NCBI GenBank assembly: GCA_036744835.1
Contig: DAIOHD010000001.1
Span: 547,910-611,909, forward strand
Direction of reading: 5' to 3'
Length of the DNA stretch: 64,000 nt
Origin: Candidatus Magasanikiibacteriota bacterium
GTDB lineage: Bacteria > Patescibacteriota > Patescibacteriia > Magasanikbacterales > GWA2-37-8
The position numbers and the translations under genes were made by a program. Every line of letters begins with the position of its first letter. The stretch's first letter is position 1. The notes under the pieces are model-generated. The model saw only the letters and a program-made list of their open reading frames with translations, was not told where the DNA came from and searched no databases. Positions 12,252 through 44,224 of the stretch are shown piece after piece.

Positions 12252-14714
12252 TTATAGGTATTCTAAATATTTCTGCTCCAAACTGTCAATAAACCTACTT
12301 CGTGTTTGTGGTCGACTACCAAACGATGTCATATTATTATTGCTGTAGGATAAATAAATATGTTTTTTAGCGCGAGTCAATGCAACATAAAACAATCTTT
12401 TTTCTTCTTCTAAATCACTTTTATAAGCCGGGAATTTAAATTCATTCATCCCAATAATAAAGATATAGTCGAATTCCAACCCTTTGGCCTGATGAATAGT
12501 AATAATCGGAGTTTTTCCCGATTCCAATCCTAAGAAATCCAAATTCTTTGCCAAAGCAAAACGACTAACCATTTCCTGTAAAGAAATTTCTGCTTCTTTT
12601 TCTTTGTCATCATAATGGACCAAAAAATTTAAAAGCATCTGAATATTTTTTGCCTTTTCTTTTTCTTTATCATCTTCGTAATAATATTTTTTTAAACCAG
12701 AATCCTCAAAAATAAATTCAACAGCTTTGTCTGGACGAAAATCTCTAATAACTTTACGCCAATTTTCTATTTTGAGAGCTAGTGATAAAAACTTACTACC
12801 ATACTCTTTAAAAAATTTTTCTCTTTCTTTGGTATGTTTTTTTAATTGTTTAACTAAATATAAAAATAAATCTATCGTTGCAGCCACATCATCATCCGCA
12901 CTATGAGTAGCTGAGCTAAAATTTAAAAGTTTGGACAAAGTAGATAATTTATAATTTTCACTTTTGATAAATCTACGACTCAAATCTAGAGTATCATAAA
13001 ATTCTTTAATATTTTGCTTGATATCCAAGCGACGACAATTTTCTACAATCATTTTAAAATCAAAATAAACATTATGTCCGACAATGGCATCTTTACCAAT
13101 AAAAGAAATAATCTCTGTCAAAACAATTTTTGGGTCTTCGCCTTTTTCTTTCAAAAATTCATCACTTAACCCATGAATATTTTCTGATAAACCAACAGGA
13201 ACAGAATTTTTCAAATAAAAATGTCTTTTGTCTCCCGACTTACCACCAACTATTTCTTGAGCAAAAATTTGAACAATCTCATCTGTCATCGGATTGGTGC
13301 CGGTAGTTTCGGTGTCCAAAACGATAACTCTGCCTTTGTCTACAGCTTGAACTAATTTTTCAAAAGGTTCACTCCGACCAAAATTGACAAAAGAAAAAAA
13401 GTCACAAACGCGCAAGCCTGTAAATTCAATTTCCGAAATCATTTTTTTGAAAGCCGGGGCGGTCATTATTTTTTCCGGTCGCAGAGTCATTCGTGCCGCA
13501 CTCTCAGTATCAAATTTATTGAATAAAATTTTTACACAAGCCAATAAATCTTTGATTTCTTGTCGACGAAAAAAACGAAATTTATCCACAGTAATAAACG
13601 GCTCATTTTTTTCTTCAAAATTAATTACTGATTCGCGAATCAAACTATGCCCGCGCGAAAGCACGGCCACCGTAGTACTGGGTTCTTCGGCTCGTAAACG
13701 TTTCAATTCATTTATTACAAAAGATATTTCTTCTTTAAAATCAAATCCCCCAAACATGGTAATGCATTTTTCTCTCCCTCCGCTATTACTTGTTGTCAAT
13801 TCTTTGGTATAAGAATTTTCAAAACTAGAAAGAAATGATTTTACCGCACTGAGCAAATAAGGATTAAAACGATAATTTTCAGTTAAATCATACTCAATCA
13901 CCGGAGCAAAATGCGATTTAAAAATCTTGGCAATAAAAAGAGGATTACTCCCTCGCCAGGAATAAATCGTTTGATCCAAATCTCCGATAAAAGTAATATT
14001 TTTATGAACTTTGGCCAATTCTTTGACTACCAGATATTCGGATAAATGCGTATCTTGAAATTCATCTACTTGGATAAATTTATAACGCCCAACCCATTTT
14101 TTCTTAAGATTTTCTTCTAAATATAAAATTCGCAAAGTATAAACAACTAGCTCGTTGAAATCCAAAACATTCAAGTCAGTTAATTTTTTGAAATATCTAT
14201 CTTTGATTTGTTCTTCTATTTTGGTCAAAGAAATTTGCGAAGTCTTGCAACCAATGACATTTTCCATTTCTGTCAAACGACTACGAGAAATTTTATCAAA
14301 CAATTTATCATTTCGCACTTCTTTGAGTTCAGGGTATTCTTCCAAAATATTTTCAAAAATTTGCATTTGCTCTTCCTCATCAATAATCGTAAAATCAGTA
14401 TTAAGTCCGAGTTCTTTGGCTTCAGATTTTACAATATTGGCGCAAAAACCATGAAAAGTTTTTACAGTCAAAGCATTTATAATTTCCGTTTGGATAATCT
14501 TGGTTTTGATACGTGAAACCATCTCGGCCGCAGCTTTGTTGGTAAAAGTCAAACACAAAATCTCTTCAGGTTTTATCCCTTGTTTCAAGGCAGATAGTAC
14601 TCGTTGTGCCAAAACAGTGGTTTTGCCGGTACCAACCGGAGCGCAAACAAGATAAGCACCAAAAACACTATCAATGATTTTTTGTTGTTCTTGATTAAAA
14701 TTCATAAGTTTCAA
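12252..14714 (-). CDS. UvrD/PcrA-family helicase with an embedded DEDDh (DnaQ-like) 3'-5' exonuclease domain
   Basis: N-terminal APVGTGKTT Walker A. Internal VLDTETTG...HNVYFDFKM...HSADDD exonuclease motifs. C-terminal UvrD_C region (ITIHQAKGLEFD, ALTRAKK). Confidence 0.75.
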   Translation of the reverse strand: MKLMNFNQEQQKIIDSVFGAYLVCAPVGTGKTTVLAQRVLSALKQGIKPEEILCLTFTNKAAAEMVSRIKTKIIQTEIINALTVKTFHGFCANIVKSEAKELGLNTDFTIIDEEEQMQIFENILEEYPELKEVRNDKLFDKISRSRLTEMENVIGCKTSQISLTKIEEQIKDRYFKKLTDLNVLDFNELVVYTLRILYLEENLKKKWVGRYKFIQVDEFQDTHLSEYLVVKELAKVHKNITFIGDLDQTIYSWRGSNPLFIAKIFKSHFAPVIEYDLTENYRFNPYLLSAVKSFLSSFENSYTKELTTSNSGGREKCITMFGGFDFKEEISFVINELKRLRAEEPSTTVAVLSRGHSLIRESVINFEEKNEPFITVDKFRFFRRQEIKDLLACVKILFNKFDTESAARMTLRPEKIMTAPAFKKMISEIEFTGLRVCDFFSFVNFGRSEPFEKLVQAVDKGRVIVLDTETTGTNPMTDEIVQIFAQEIVGGKSGDKRHFYLKNSVPVGLSENIHGLSDEFLKEKGEDPKIVLTEIISFIGKDAIVGHNVYFDFKMIVENCRRLDIKQNIKEFYDTLDLSRRFIKSENYKLSTLSKLLNFSSATHSADDDVAATIDLFLYLVKQLKKHTKEREKFFKEYGSKFLSLALKIENWRKVIRDFRPDKAVEFIFEDSGLKKYYYEDDKEKEKAKNIQMLLNFLVHYDDKEKEAEISLQEMVSRFALAKNLDFLGLESGKTPIITIHQAKGLEFDYIFIIGMNEFKFPAYKSDLEEEKRLFYVALTRAKKHIYLSYSNNNMTSFGSRPQTRSRFIDSLEQKYLEYL

Positions 14715-14839: not shown

Positions 14840-15442
14840 ATGATCAAAAATTATTACCCGACGTTTGAAGAAGCGTCAGACGCGTTTGCTAAAATATTGG
14901 AAAAGAAAAAGGTAGATCAATACTCTGGAACAGCTTTTTATGTTTATCTAGGTCATTATGATGAAGATCCCAGACTGCCACCCAGCCCGGAATTCACTTA
15001 CCGGAACGTGTGGAAACAAAATGGGGGCTGGAAAACATTCTTAAAAAGAAAAGATGAAGAGATACTGTTTTATACTTTTGAAGAAGCTCAAGAGGCTATT
15101 CAAAAATTGCGTCCAGTGCCTAAAAATAGCACCGAATACTCAAAGTATCAAAAACAAAATCGACGTCTAACTTCTGTGCCAGCAACCTTTTACCCCGATT
15201 TTGAAGATCGCGGAGGTTGGGACGCCTATCTACTCTTGGCTGAAATTTATATAAACAAAAATCCTCAATATTATGAGGATATATTTGAAGCCAAGAAGGC
15301 TATTATCAAACTCGGAATAAAAAATGAAAATGCATATCGAACTGATTATAAGTTTGATCCAAAACTACCGCCCAATCTACGAGGGTATTATGGAAAATAT
15401 GCTTTACAGAAAGCTTTTGGAAGTTGCTTTAAATTTATTTGA
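14840..15442 (+). CDS. Hypothetical protein built of three tandem ~60-aa repeats (FEEA...A..KL...Y..Y....LPxxP...GW module)
   Basis: Internal repeats YYPTFEEASDAFAKIL.., LFYTFEEAQEAIQKL.. and QYYEDIFEAKKAIIKL... Strong promoter and RBS. One of only three plus-strand genes. Confidence 0.5.
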   Translation: MIKNYYPTFEEASDAFAKILEKKKVDQYSGTAFYVYLGHYDEDPRLPPSPEFTYRNVWKQNGGWKTFLKRKDEEILFYTFEEAQEAIQKLRPVPKNSTEYSKYQKQNRRLTSVPATFYPDFEDRGGWDAYLLLAEIYINKNPQYYEDIFEAKKAIIKLGIKNENAYRTDYKFDPKLPPNLRGYYGKYALQKAFGSCFKFI

Positions 15443-40030: not shown

Positions 40031-40112
40031 AGTTCGTATTTTTAAAATATAAAAATATTAAATATTGGTTATTAATACTCTTATTTTAATCTAAAACGAA
40101 TAAAAAGGCAAT

Positions 40113-40715
40113 AAAAAAGGCGCAGCTATGAGAAGCTGCGCCAAGGTACGGTACAAGGTACGATACGAAACAGGACAAAAACAATTCTGATCCTTTGACA
40201 GGGATAAAGGCGAAGACAACAATCTCCGGTAAAAACCCGCTTCAGTAGGACCTTTTTGGCCAGCGTGTTAGCCATCAGGACCTCAAGATTGTTGTTTCCA
40301 AGAACTTGGATTGGAGAGGATAGCCAAGACCACATTACAACCTTACCTCTCAAGCAAGAAAAAGCTATTTAACAGTGGCTTGTATCTTCGCACAAACTGT
40401 AAAATAGCTGGATGTCTCTGCTTAAAAGCTACCGTTTTTAAGAAACGGAGTAAGCTTTACCGACAAACTCGGTAGGTTTAGGCATCACTTACGATACGCT
40501 TGTTGCACTGCTATGACCTAGATGAAGGAAACAGTGCATAGGTTTTTTGATTGCAGCAGATAGAACTGCTAGGTCTTTGTTGGCGACCAAGCCCCTAGCA
40601 CAGATAAAAGAAATTAAGTTGTTTTTTTCTGTGCGAAAAAACACTCCATCTTTCGGATTGCGACCGCTTACCTGTCTGCCAAAGAACATGTTTTCTGTCC
40701 AAAAAAACATAAACA
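40113..40715 (-). ncRNA. Candidate large structured ncRNA (~590 nt), class unresolved
   Basis: GC-rich (~45%) ORF-free island in a ~30% GC genome. Dense hairpins (GCACAGA..UCUGUGC, GGUC..GACC, UGCACUG..CAGUGCA, CCGUUU..AAACGG). A -10 TATAAT lies at 40722-40717. A strong terminator ggcgcagct-atgaga-agctgcgcc plus T-run lies at 40142-40113. Confidence 0.35.
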
Positions 40716-40753
40716 AAATTATAAACCTTTTTTTGTAAAAGTCAACCTGTGGA

Positions 40754-40778
40754 TAAAAAAACCCGGACTAAATCCGGG
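40754..40778 (-). terminator. Intrinsic terminator of the response-regulator gene
   Basis: cccggatttagtccggg followed by ttttttt on the minus strand. Confidence 0.65.
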
Positions 40779-40786
40779 CTATGTAA

Positions 40787-41276: not shown

Positions 41277-42314
41277 TTAATTTTTTCCATGAGCGATACT
41301 TTCTTTTATTCCAGCAGAAGTTATGGAAATAAAATCAGCTTTACCTTTTATCGCTTCTATATTTTCCGCGCCCATATAAGTCATCCCTGAGGCTAGGCCA
41401 CCCAAAATTTTCTGAATAATCGGGGCTACCGGTCCTTTAAAAGGCACTACTGTCATCTCCCCTTCCACATGAACCATTTCTTCTGTTTTTTGCCCATCCA
41501 TTTGCATTTTCTTTATCGTAGCAGCAAAACTAGCCATGCCACGAAATTCCTTATACTCCAAACCGTCTTTGATAATTATTTTTCCTGGAGATTCAGAAGT
41601 TCCGGCAAACATAGAACCAAGCATTATAGTGTCTGCACCAGCTCCTATCGCTTTACTTACATCTCCGGGTTGTTTTATTCCACCATCAGCACAAATTGGC
41701 ACCCTGCCTTGTGCAGCTTCGTAAGCATCCATAATCGCTGTAATTTGTGGCACCCCGGCTCCAGTCATTACTCTGGTGGTACACATTGAACCCGGACCTA
41801 TCCCGACTTTTATAGCATCGGCTCCTTTGTGAATAAAATACTCAGCCGCGTCTTTGGTCGCAATATTTCCTGCCATCACATCAATTTTTGGATAATTTTT
41901 TTTAATAAAGTCTAGTACCTGTCCCATGCGTTTACAATGACCATGAGCTACATCCAAAACTATGATATTTATTCCGGCTTCAAAAAGAGCTTTTATTCTT
42001 TCTTCATAATCTTTTATTCCAACCGCCGCCGCCGCAATCAAATTGTGTTTTTTAACTTCTTTAATTTGTTGAGCTTGTTCTTCTATAGATAAAAAACGAT
42101 GTATAATTCCAAGTCCTCCCAAACGACCAACAACAATAGCCATCTCACTTTCACAAACAGTATCCATATTGGCGGCTAAGATCGGCATATCCAATTCATA
42201 ATTTTTAGTAACTTTGGTTTTAAAACTAACATTTTTACGCGAAAAAACTTTGTTATATTTTGGAACAATCAAAACATCATCAAAAGAATATCCTGAACCA
42301 ATAATACGAGCCAT
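41277..42314 (-). CDS. IMPDH/GMP reductase family protein without a CBS subdomain (GuaC-like)
   Basis: TIM-barrel with catalytic loop [16 protein letters not shown]. Its size fits a GMP reductase. Confidence 0.7.
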
Positions 42315-42412
42315 ACTTTAATAAGTTAAAAGTTAAAAGTTGAAAGTTACAAAAACTAACCTTATGAATATTATACCTGAAATTAAATACTGACAAGGGT
42401 TTGGATTAATAA

Positions 42413-42440
42413 TTGACTTTTCTTCATTTTTTGCTACAAT
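42413..42440 (+). promoter_or_regulatory. Sigma70-type promoter for tRNA-Glu
   Basis: TTGACT, 16-nt spacer, TACAAT. The tRNA starts 12 nt downstream. Confidence 0.55.
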
Positions 42441-42452
42441 ATTTGAAGTTTT

Positions 42453-42524
42453 GGCCCGTTCGTCTATCGGTTAGGACACCGCCTTCTCAAGGCAGTAAGA
42501 GGGGTTCGACTCCCCTACGGGCTA
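42453..42524 (+). tRNA. tRNA-Glu (anticodon CUC)
   Basis: Cloverleaf folds by hand. Acceptor GGCCCGT/ACGGGCT. D-arm GTCT..GGAC. Anticodon loop TTCTCAA (U33, CTC, A37). T-arm AGGGG-TTCGACT-CCCCT. CCA is not encoded. Confidence 0.75.
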
Positions 42525-42528
42525 CAGA

Positions 42529-42561
42529 AATACTCCAAACTTGTTTTGGAGTATTTTTTTA
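42529..42561 (+). terminator. Intrinsic terminator after tRNA-Glu
   Basis: aatactccaaa-cttgt-tttggagtatt followed by ttttttt. Confidence 0.65.
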
Positions 42562-42895
42562 GTCGCGAAGCGAGAGTCGAACGGGAAAGGGAGAAAACGG
42601 GAGTTTTCTCTTTGCAGAGGAAAGCTCACGAAAACCCGAAGGTTTTCGTGAGAGTCCCGATAAAATCGGGACGAGTGAGATTTCCCCTACGGGCTACAGA
42701 AACAAAATGCTCAGCGTAAGCTGGGTTTTTTGTTTCTGTATTCTGACCGGGGAGTCGAAGGGTGCGAATGAGCAAGGAGCGACAGCGACGAAGCGAGCTG
42801 ACGAAAATATGCCAGTGGCATATTTTCGGGCACCCCGGACGCGACTACCCTACGGGCTACAAAAATACTCCAAACTTATTTTGGAGTATTTTTTA
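42562..42895 (+). repeat. Two tandem modules, each consisting of GC-rich perfect hairpins, a 15-nt copy of the tRNA-Glu 3' end (cccctacgggctaca) and a terminator
   Basis: Direct repeats at 42511-42525, 42684-42698 and 42847-42861. Hairpins at 42591-42610, 42625-42652, 42654-42672 and 42803-42827. Terminators at 42709-42731 and 42864-42895. Confidence 0.55.
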
Positions 42896-42922
42896 TTTCA
42901 CAGTGTTTATTTGCTTACTTGC

Positions 42923-44224
42923 TTACAAACTTTTACGTATCCAGTATTCTTCTTGTCTCACTAGTAATTCTTCAGCTTTTTCCGGTTCCGCCATGACTTC
43001 TTTTACAATTTTTTCCATCCGTATGCTTTGTGAACCTTTTATTAAAATTATATCACCCTTCTCCATTTTATTTTGTAAAAACTTTCCAGCCGAAGCGCTA
43101 TCATCAAATACTACAATTTTATTTTCATCCATTCCCGCTTCTTTGGCAGCAACGGCTGTAAATTTTTTACTGGCTTCTCCAACTACTATCAGATAATCAA
43201 AGTTAGCTTCAACCACGCGAAATCCTATTTCTCGATGGGCATTTTCAGTATCTAGTCCCAATTCTAACATATCTCCCAAAATTGCAATTCTTTTGCCACT
43301 TCCTTGCGGAGAAATTTTAGCTGTAGCCAAAAGAGCACTACGCACCGCTTCCGGAGAAGAATTATAAGTATCATCAATAATCAAAGTATGTTTAATACCT
43401 GGAATAATACGCATGTGACCTAAAAGCGGTTTAATTTGTCGCAAAGCTATAGCTCCTTCAACTAAATTTATTCCAAAAATATGACCCACGGTCAAACCAG
43501 CTAAGGCCGCCGGGATAAATTGTTCGGCAATAAAACCAGGCAAAAAAACTGGTACAATATTGCCTCGATGTAAAACTTTAAAATTTAAACCAACAGGCCA
43601 AAAAGACTGCTCGTCTATGATAATATTGACATCAGTTGCTTGAAAATCAGCTCCATCTTTAAAACCATATGTAAAAGTTTCAGCATTAGTTTTGGCATTT
43701 TGCATCACCATTTCATTATCAAAATTAAGAACAGCAAAACCATCTTCTTTAAGATGAGAAACTATTAAACGCTTTTCTTGTGCAATTTTTTTAATAGTTT
43801 TAAAAAACTCAATATGAGCATTGCCAATAAAAGTTAAAACCCCGACTTTGCAAGGAGCAATTTCAAGTAAATATTCGATATCACCCGGTTTGTCCGCCCC
43901 CATTTCCAAAACTAAAACATCTGGATAATCAGAAATTCGAGAAAATCTCAAAACAAAGGCTTTGTAAAAAACTTTAATCCAACCAAAAATATCCTTACCT
44001 GGAGTTTTTTCTACGCCAATTATAGTTAAGGGCATCCCAATTTCATTGTTATAATTTTTTTTGTTGGATCTAACATTAAATTTACTGCCGAGTACAACAG
44101 CAATAGCCTCTTTGGTGGAGGTTTTACCAATGGAACCGGTGATACCAATAATGTCAGGTTTGTATTTTTTAATAATTTTTTTCGCACAATGACGAAGTAA
44201 CATCTGTAAAATGGTTTTTAACAT
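42923..44224 (-). CDS. murF: UDP-MurNAc-tripeptide--D-Ala-D-Ala ligase
   Basis: Mur ligase domains with the GITGSIGKTSTKE ATP-binding motif. Confidence 0.85.
   Translation of the reverse strand: MLKTILQMLLRHCAKKIIKKYKPDIIGITGSIGKTSTKEAIAVVLGSKFNVRSNKKNYNNEIGMPLTIIGVEKTPGKDIFGWIKVFYKAFVLRFSRISDYPDVLVLEMGADKPGDIEYLLEIAPCKVGVLTFIGNAHIEFFKTIKKIAQEKRLIVSHLKEDGFAVLNFDNEMVMQNAKTNAETFTYGFKDGADFQATDVNIIIDEQSFWPVGLNFKVLHRGNIVPVFLPGFIAEQFIPAALAGLTVGHIFGINLVEGAIALRQIKPLLGHMRIIPGIKHTLIIDDTYNSSPEAVRSALLATAKISPQGSGKRIAILGDMLELGLDTENAHREIGFRVVEANFDYLIVVGEASKKFTAVAAKEAGMDENKIVVFDDSASAGKFLQNKMEKGDIILIKGSQSIRMEKIVKEVMAEPEKAEELLVRQEEYWIRKSL

Follow-up and report, generated by a model that had tools for sequence, protein, structure and literature searches.

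The window examined here, a stretch of 64,000 nucleotides (nt) of contig DAIOHD010000001.1, contains a single tRNA gene, tRNA-Glu(CUC), on the plus strand at 42453–42525 (ARAGORN call with anticodon CTC; Rfam tRNA model, 48.7 bits). Behind this gene and on the same strand lie two GC-rich units, termed unit 1 and unit 2, both ending in a copy of the tRNA 3′ end with a terminator-like hairpin behind it. These units, their relatives in other genomes, and their likeness to the RtT RNAs of Escherichia coli are the subject of this study; conserved tRNA-trailer RNAs are, in our judgement, a more likely explanation of them than the scars of integrated mobile DNA. The host genome is placed by its MurF relatives in Candidatus Magasanikbacteria, Patescibacteria. 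The tRNA-Glu gene lies between a guaB-like IMPDH gene and murF, with which it is convergent, in a wider region of housekeeping genes (Pfam scans of the open reading frames (ORFs) of the window); nearly all genes of the window are on the minus strand, and tRNA-Glu faces them. The units have a G+C content of 46–59%, against 33.8% for the genome. The features of the locus, with hairpin stems given in base pairs (bp), are as follows.

41277–42314, minus strand: guaB-like IMPDH gene, neighbor of tRNA-Glu
42413–42440, plus strand: promoter-like site of tRNA-Glu (TTGACT, 16-nt spacer, TG-extended TACAAT; 10 of 12 matches)
42453–42525, plus strand: tRNA-Glu(CUC), with T-arm AGGGG-TTCGACT-CCCCT at 42500–42516; CCA not encoded
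42528–42560, plus strand: T1, terminator-like hairpin and U7, with a stem that begins within the tRNA tail (CTACA...); identical in the related locus L002
42563–42698, plus strand: unit 1 ('mod1'), defined by sequence, folds and an ortholog in L289/L290
42563–42573, plus strand: unit 1, small hairpin
42574–42582, plus strand: unit 1, antisense-to-T-loop segment GAGTCGAAC
42591–42610, plus strand: unit 1, 8-bp hairpin with loop GGGA
42611–42624, plus strand: unit 1, conserved single-stranded TTTGCAGAGGAAAG
42625–42652, plus strand: unit 1, 12-bp hairpin with loop CGAA
42654–42672, plus strand: unit 1, 8-bp hairpin with loop AAA
42670–42678, plus strand: unit 1, GACGAGTGA
42683–42698, plus strand: unit 1, copy of the tRNA 3′ end
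42696–42739, plus strand: T2, terminator-like hairpin with core 42709–42726 and U6, extended by pairing of A-tract and U-tract
42749–42861, plus strand: unit 2 ('mod2', type A family), defined by folds, covariance model R1 and family alignment
42749–42759, plus strand: unit 2, antisense segment GGGGAGTCGAA, the 5′ strand of helix P1
42760–42765 with 42830–42835, plus strand: unit 2, helix P2, GGGTGC/GCACCC
42802–42828, plus strand: unit 2, hairpin of 13 bp with a 1-nt loop or 12 bp with a 3-nt loop
42842–42850, plus strand: unit 2, 3′ strand of P1, CGACTACCC, followed by the copy of the tRNA 3′ end up to 42861
42861–42894, plus strand: T3, terminator-like hairpin and U6, 96.9% identical to T1
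42923–44224, minus strand: murF, the other neighbor of tRNA-Glu

The last 14 nt of tRNA-Glu, CCCTACGGGCTACA, are found three times on the plus strand (42513, 42685, and 42848), where shuffled sequences give an expected count of 0.00; a sequence-only reading of this stretch had noticed the recurrence, which the exact 14-mers at 42685 and 42848 bear out. The 16-mer TCCCCTACGGGCTACA is exact at 42683 and carries one mismatch at 42846 (TACCC...), and the third copy of the tRNA 3′ end can be followed as a 20-mer at 90% identity (42842–42861). Copies 1 and 3 have in common a 53-nt direct repeat (94% identity) that runs from the T-loop through the terminator. The motif GAGTCGAA occurs four times in 64 kb, where 0.93 occurrences are expected, and three of the four are in the tRNA-Glu locus. 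The inverted T-arm fragments of the same reading are likewise exact, with GAGTCGAAC at 42574–42582 and GGGGAGTCGAA at 42749–42759. Each copy has its own hairpin and U-run, as had been claimed, and two of these three, T1 and T3, are near-identical (97%). Both are A/U-rich hairpins of 12–14 bp followed by six or seven U residues, as read from the sequence; a simple terminator scan of the plus strand flagged T2 alone. T3 probably also ends the convergent murF transcript. Together, the T-arm, the terminator, and the antisense segment make up one long quasi-palindrome.

Each unit has three parts, a 5′ antisense segment, a body of hairpins, and a 3′ arm, after which come a hairpin and a U-run. In both units the antisense segment is the exact reverse complement of the T-loop and the T-stem 3′ strand of tRNA-Glu, and the 3′ arm corresponds to tRNA-Glu from the T-loop to the discriminator and further. 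The hairpins of unit 1 lie where they had been placed before, with the 8-bp GGGA and 12-bp CGAA hairpins as described; the third, given previously as 7 bp with an AAAA loop, in fact has 8 bp and an AAA loop. The closing helix in the fold of unit 1 consists of GGGAAA/UUUCCC only. In the minimum-energy fold of unit 2, the antisense segment pairs with the unit's own 3′ arm to form P1 (GGGGAGUCG/CGACUACCC, 9 bp with one mismatch), P2 is formed by GGGUGC/GCACCC, and UACGGGCUACA is left as an unpaired tail. No similarity to a tRNA cloverleaf or to the 5′ two-thirds of a tRNA was found in the units by ARAGORN or the Rfam tRNA model; ARAGORN, a check proposed with the sequence-only reading, returns one tRNA-Glu(CTC) only for the region. 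Besides tRNA, no known RNA family was found in the locus by Rfam, either at the gathering score or at E ≤ 10. The tRNA-like domain of tmRNA, considered for a resemblance to ..UCGAC-GGG...GGAC.., was rejected on a negative ARAGORN tmRNA search and negative Rfam results. The 85-aa and 144-aa ORFs of the repeat region have no Pfam match, in agreement with their earlier assessment as non-coding.

Sister species with the same guaB–tRNA–murF locus, whose MurF proteins are 84–87% identical, were compared at this position. L289 and L290 carry a single unit that is orthologous to unit 1. Their T-loop has changed from TTCGACT to TTCGATT, and the antisense segment has changed alongside it from GAGTCGAAC to GAATCGAAC; in the 12-bp stem, CACG/CGUG has given way to UUGG/CCAA by three double substitutions and the loop is larger; TTTGCAGAGGAAAG, which is unpaired, is identical to that of unit 1, and the 3′ copy matches the altered acceptor stem of its own tRNA (ACGAGCT). 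In L002, unit 1 is reduced to its first 38 nt, which are identical, no second copy of the tRNA 3′ end is present, and a promoter and a divergent phosphoribosyl pyrophosphate (PRPP) synthetase gene come next. In L001, a remnant of unit 1, GAGAGTCAAAC, is kept after the terminator and the units are otherwise gone. The promoter-like site of tRNA-Glu is conserved in L001 and L002. The ortholog in L289/L290, together with the remnants in L001 and L002, indicates that unit 1 is ancestral to the sister group; some species have maintained it with compensatory change, and others can dispense with it. The earlier proposal to look in related genomes for an empty or an occupied site thus led, in L001, to a locus that seems empty and is a deletion, the retained remnant arguing against an unoccupied att site. 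No clean empty site was found among close relatives, which have the remnant (L001), the 38 nt (L002), or an inverted tRNA.

Two observations were made beside these comparisons. In L013 (5374–5446), L287 (3880–3950), L288, L003, and L004, in the interval between guaB and murF that corresponds to 42315–42922 of the window, tRNA-Glu and its promoter are inverted and unit-free, and the tRNA is co-directional with the flanking genes. The PRPP synthetase gene of L002 (5385–6585, minus strand) has its own promoter and matches TIGR01251 at E 1e-23, below the cut-off.

Relatives of unit 2 were sought in metagenomes with a scan that required two copies of TACGGGCTACA 141–201 nt apart, a design that biases the family census toward one acceptor sequence. 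At least 106 stretches were recovered, most of them coding repeats or two whole tRNA-Glu genes; among the matches listed, about 17 consist of tRNA-Glu followed by a non-tRNA unit that ends in the tRNA 3′ end. One coherent GC-rich group, designated type A, was apparent among the matches, and unit 2 belongs to it. Because a MAFFT alignment of all units misaligned the short ones, a covariance model, R1, was instead built from five well-aligned type A members that lie behind tRNA-Glu in Magasanikbacteria and Moranbacteria. R1 recovers all known members and two further ones (L098 and L029), with L088 at 40 bits. Unit 2 matches R1 over its full length (33 bits, E 1e-5 to 3e-6) with P1, P2, and P2b in register, whereas unit 1 is borderline (22.5 bits, E 0.001–0.006). 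Away from tRNA-Glu 3′ ends, R1 has no match in about 1 Mb of sequence. The interpretation that fits best is that unit 2 belongs to a conserved family, with unit 1 as a divergent relative.

The fold described by R1 is supported by covariation. In an alignment of 11 sequences, 96% of the cells are paired and double changes are seen in 13 of the 31 pairs; the covariation score of 0.310 compares with 0.127 for shuffled alignments (0 of 500 reach 0.310) and 0.04–0.06 for slid partners. The same alignment has 16 G·U cells and 6 A·C cells, and one U·G pair is conserved in seven of nine sequences when read on the tRNA strand. The G·U bias and the conserved U·G wobble speak for an RNA with the sense of the tRNA rather than for an antisense RNA or a hairpin in DNA. 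Four helices and unpaired blocks of type A are conserved across two classes of Patescibacteria, and the units keep a G+C content of 46–64% across AT-rich host genomes (about 34% G+C).

The type A hosts in which tRNA-Glu stands in a tsaD–valS context are Candidatus Moranbacteria. When Moranbacteria loci were collected by way of ValS homologs, a route that does not depend on the repeat pattern, four of six had a unit behind tRNA-Glu (L292, L294, L295, and L299; none in L298 and L301). The R1 score declines with ValS identity (135, 127, 98, and 82 bits), which points to vertical descent. In L295, tRNA-Glu and its unit have been relocated and inverted jointly. L292 has a second, decaying copy, and L029 has two near-identical tandem copies. 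The acceptor stem of L295 and L299 now reads GGCCCCA/UGGGGCU, a change mirrored in the 3′ copy as well as in the antisense segment; the repeat covers 11–18 nt in these two loci and excludes the terminator.

The antisense segment is the exact complement of the local tRNA over 8–16 nt in 12 of 13 units, the exception being L084 with two mismatches. The T-loop variants covered by these units are TTCGACT, TTCGATT, TGCGATT, TCCGACT, and TCCGATT. The longest match, 16 nt in L295 (CCAAGGGGAGTCGAAC), extends into and follows the changed acceptor stem. Three explanations of the match remain, namely pairing with the tRNA (in the precursor or in trans), a requirement at the DNA level, or repeated re-copying by template switching.

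Units of this layout are not confined to tRNA-Glu. A blind scan of 295 tRNAs, in which a T-arm reverse complement had to precede a direct 3′-end copy, picked up the type A loci, tyrV of E. coli, and, unexpectedly, tRNA-Arg(UCG) of the Moranbacteria locus L295. The tRNA-Arg units consist of a segment antisense to their own T-loop, hairpins, and then a copy of their own 3′ end. The following are homologous to one another.

L295, 10879–11060, minus strand: unit behind tRNA-Arg(UCG)
L299, 14034–14148, plus strand: unit behind tRNA-Arg(UCG)
L294, 8367–8518, plus strand: unit behind tRNA-Arg(UCG)
L029, 1–117, minus strand: unit behind tRNA-Arg(UCG)

A truncated tRNA-Arg unit is found in L301 and none in L296 and L298, and R1 has no match to the tRNA-Arg units. 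By genome, the Glu and Arg units co-occur, with both present in four genomes and neither in two to three.

The architecture of the units is that of RtT, which came to light when the E. coli tyrT locus was first sequenced and has looked restricted to enterobacteria. To our knowledge, RtT of E. coli is the sole described example of a class of structured tRNA-trailer RNAs; literature searches for RtT-like elements outside enterobacteria returned nothing relevant. A preprint (10.1101/2024.07.17.603846) still describes its function as unknown and mentions that it may take part in the stringent response. In E. coli K-12 (NC_000913), four RtT elements (RF00391, 133–137 bits; rttR) lie behind tyrT and tyrV, and each has the last 19 nt of tRNA-Tyr at its end and GGGGAAGGAU at its start, the complement of AUCCUUCCCC in the copy. 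In the Rfam consensus, the GGGGAAGGAU/AUCCUUCCCC helix (P1) closes the fold and CACCACCA forms the tail. The units of the window likewise stand immediately behind a tRNA gene, share its strand, and are repeated in tandem (two units here, and tandem copies also in L029 and L292), they end in the tRNA 3′-terminal segment from the T-loop on (16 and 20 nt here, 19 nt in E. coli), a 5′ segment complementary to this copy closes the fold as P1 and leaves the acceptor 3′ strand as a tail, and the body consists of GC-rich hairpins with many GCGAAGCGAGAG-like motifs. The differences are that the antisense segment here spans the entire T-loop, whereas that of RtT covers the T-stem 3′ strand and three to four acceptor bases; that RtT retains a direct copy of the variable arm and the T-arm 5′ half of the tRNA, which the present units lack; that the present units usually have their own hairpin and U-run, with CCA not encoded; and that the hosts are Patescibacteria and the tRNAs Glu and Arg. 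Homology in sequence between RtT and the units was rejected, as blastn returned matches of 7–18 nt only (E ≥ 0.12) in short GA/GC-rich motifs. The units share every architectural feature of RtT yet fall outside RF00391, and they add an antisense segment that spans the T-loop and co-evolves with it.

The reading that we favor, on a slender balance of probability, is that the units are a dispensable, new family of RtT-like tRNA-trailer RNAs whose arrays would grow by recombination between the repeated tRNA 3′ ends. Their structure is conserved with compensatory changes, their G·U pairs are biased to the tRNA strand, antisense segment and T-loop co-vary, and the arrangement recurs behind tRNA-Arg and tRNA-Tyr. 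Each unit, encoded on the same strand as the tRNA and beyond its promoter, would fold into a multi-hairpin body closed by P1, in which the 5′ segment antisense to the T-loop and T-stem would pair with the copied tRNA 3′ piece, and the copied acceptor 3′ strand would form a single-stranded tail running into the terminator hairpin. Read-through transcription from the tRNA promoter would produce the units and tRNA-type processing would release them. The antisense segment may have two alternative partners, the 3′ arm of its own unit and the T-arm of the (pre-)tRNA-Glu; the outcome would be an RNA, linked to the tRNA, that serves in regulation or quality control. With its repeats of the tRNA 3′ end, the array is prone to unequal recombination, through which it would gain and lose units; tandem copies, precise losses, and the 53-nt repeat would follow. 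Template switching is the probable creator, and a possible refresher, of the reverse-complement segment and the perfect stems. A functional tRNA 3′ trailer has a precedent in the 3′ external transcribed spacer (3′ETS) of E. coli leuZ, a small-RNA sponge, which is likewise a regulatory RNA within a tRNA transcript, freed by tRNA processing; the 3′ETS differs in having no copy of the tRNA 3′ end, no segment antisense to the T-loop, and no tandem units.

Several results weigh against a conserved trailer RNA. The pair counts come from model-fitted alignments of a small number of related sequences. RF00391 has no match on the window locus and eight related loci at E ≤ 10 (gathering score, 45 bits), nor does R1 have a match on RtT. 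The hairpins of unit 1 are perfectly Watson–Crick with zero wobble, which suits mutation by template switching equally well. A sigma-70 scan found no promoter-like site ahead of either unit, and a strong hairpin and U-run precedes each of them, so that transcription of the units would need read-through. The 3′ arm of a unit starts at position 56–58, which leaves the complement of T-loop positions 53–57 without a partner within the unit; P1 alone is therefore insufficient to explain the co-variation of the antisense segment. Finally, the units are dispensable, being deleted in L001, truncated in L002, and absent from L013/L287, L298, and L301.

The main rival, which we regard as unlikely, takes the units for small, site-specific mobile elements of a non-autonomous kind, or for remnants of such elements, which would insert at the tRNA T-loop by means of a recombinase encoded elsewhere in the genome. 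The tRNA 3′ repeat would be an att site or target duplication, and the antisense segment would form or recognize the target, for example as a folded single-stranded attP like that of CTX phage or like an integron attC, or as a guide. The direct repeats begin in the T-loop and in many loci reach the end of the terminator, the arrays contain dissimilar units in tandem in the window and near-identical ones in L029, units are scattered unevenly among genomes and are decayed in L292 and L301, and two tRNAs have units of the same layout that match their own tRNA and co-occur in genomes, all of which speaks for mobile elements; the tRNA-Glu 3′ region is moreover an insertion hot spot (an IS3-like element in a partial tRNA copy in L098). 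The att-site repeats of integrative elements that target tRNAs, including CIME-like accretion of degenerate elements, share with the present locus direct tRNA 3′ repeats that start in the T-loop, accretion in tandem behind a tRNA that is intact, and a degenerate T-arm copy inward of the distal repeat. They differ in that the present locus has no integrase, cargo, or variable-size remnants and has a conserved structured fold as its interior, and in the extra inverted T-loop copy, which standard attP and attR lack. In 52 of the 54 long ORFs that the 64-kb window contains, Pfam searches found no catalytic integrase, recombinase, or transposase, and no catalytic recombinase adjoins the units in any locus. 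The sole integrase-related match in the window is a 200-aa protein with INT_rpt repeats 27 kb from the units (14840–15442, plus strand; PF14882 'integrase repeat unit' repeats only, without a catalytic domain or an NCBIfam match). The mobile-element reading is also opposed by the failure to find a larger element with the same ends or a clean empty site (the L001 locus keeps a remnant), by the lack of a unit match in viral contigs, by unit divergence that parallels host divergence, by G·U pairs conserved on one strand, and by the repeats of L295 and L299, which cover 11–18 nt only and do not include the terminator. A phage attP or larger element was rejected after two scans of viral contigs, of which the core-motif scan gave at least 120 chance matches, with unit context in none of those listed, and the two-block pattern gave 0 matches; the tRNA-Glu 3′-end matches in viral contigs are phage-encoded whole tRNAs, bar one ordinary partial copy. 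An integron attC or CTX-type folded site was rejected as well: no IntI-like gene was found in the window ORFs, GTCGAAC and GTTCGAC are each one base off the attC core RYYYAAC/GTTRRRY, and the conserved U·G wobble favors RNA. The sequence-only reading had been correct that integrase and cargo are absent, as the 64 kb hold no catalytic integrase and nothing is carried between the repeats; its first suggestion, a footprint of serial integration, is not supported for units that are discrete, structurally conserved, and mostly inherited with their tRNA in two patescibacterial lineages.

The remaining explanations concern the antisense segment and the origin of the units. It is rather improbable that the segment is a functional guide and that the units and E. 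coli RtT form a widespread tRNA-specific class that pairs with the T-loop and T-stem of its own tRNA (in the precursor or in trans) and controls its folding, maturation, or availability, or alternatively that the guide steers a recombinase to tRNA genes; each unit would then be 'programmed' for its own tRNA by 9–16 nt of complementarity. Also improbable, though like the mobile elements a live rival, is that the units are functionless by-products of DNA mutation, formed by tandem duplication of the tRNA 3′ end and template switching at the terminator quasi-palindrome and then left to decay. Template switching yields nearby reverse-complement copies and can create or mend stems in a single event (PMC8794818), and hairpins of this origin resemble the units in their nearby reverse-complement copies, perfect stems, and apparent compensatory changes in one step. 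The T-arm/terminator/antisense quasi-palindrome, the perfect stems of unit 1, the frequent loss and decay of units, and the type C units of L031/L072, in which the whole tRNA 3′ end is repeated in inverted form straight after the terminator, are in keeping with this origin. As a mutational mechanism and not a class of element, template switching leaves unexplained the unpaired blocks, the wobble pair, which is not expected from correction of a DNA palindrome, and the discrete and constant unit boundaries; nor would by-products be expected to keep the four type A helices and unpaired blocks across two patescibacterial classes or to remain GC-rich in genomes of about 34% G+C. Simple tRNA-gene decay, by which the units would be 'retired' tRNA-Glu copies with the 3′ end alone recognizable and the remainder randomly drifted, is the least likely reading and a very improbable one. 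Tandem intact tRNA-Glu genes with 80–120-nt spacers are common in other metagenomic contigs, E. coli RtT retains a recognizable segment of the tRNA-Tyr variable arm and T-arm, and the unit 3′ arms resemble degenerate T-arms. Against decay, the body keeps, with covariation, a fold that is not that of a tRNA, the 5′ segment repeats the tRNA in reverse complement and not directly, ARAGORN and the Rfam tRNA model are blank on the units, and no relative examined has an intact tRNA in the place of a unit, the finding that had been named in advance as pointing to decay. The alternatives offered by the sequence-only reading accordingly part ways: tRNA-derived small-RNA modules come close to the comparative data, whereas retired tRNAs do not.

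The RtT architecture extends in Patescibacteria to two further tRNAs and at least three families that are unrelated in sequence. These supply the divergence wanting in the E. coli case, with a fold kept by compensatory changes and an antisense segment that co-evolves with the T-loop, and this divergence makes an RtT-like trailer function testable by comparative genomics. For annotation, they caution against reading every repeat of a tRNA 3′ end as an att site.

Further arrangements were observed behind tRNA-Glu. A separate unit family, marked by an 11-nt loop on a T-arm-like hairpin, follows tRNA-Glu(UUC) in L061, L063, L099, and L133 and is in tandem in L061; an upstream CAGAGGCTTT complements the 5′ arm of the unit's own terminator, a possible alternative pairing of the antiterminator type. 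In L031 and L072 (type C), an inverted, degenerate copy of the T-arm and acceptor stands directly after the terminator and is followed by an AT-rich body, and L117 has two tandem 175-nt units. In L098 (3700–5137, minus strand), a partial second tRNA copy that starts at the anticodon loop lies between tRNA-Glu and the type A unit and is interrupted by an IS3-like insertion sequence (rve and HTH_21), from which it follows that the tRNA-Glu 3′ site is also struck by ordinary mobile DNA. A stand-alone small GIY-YIG gene directly upstream of tRNA-Glu is found in L098 (5143–5394, minus strand) and L292 (585–830, plus strand), both with type A units, and was not seen in the other loci.

Elsewhere in the window, 756 nt at 40031–40786 have no credible ORF, a G+C content of locally up to 0.48 (0.34 for the genome), and no Rfam match even at E ≤ 1. 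The 200-aa protein with integrase repeats is encoded by one of the few plus-strand genes. At 12252–14714 on the minus strand, the window encodes a UvrD-type helicase with an RNase_T (DnaQ-like) exonuclease domain inserted at residues 464–617.

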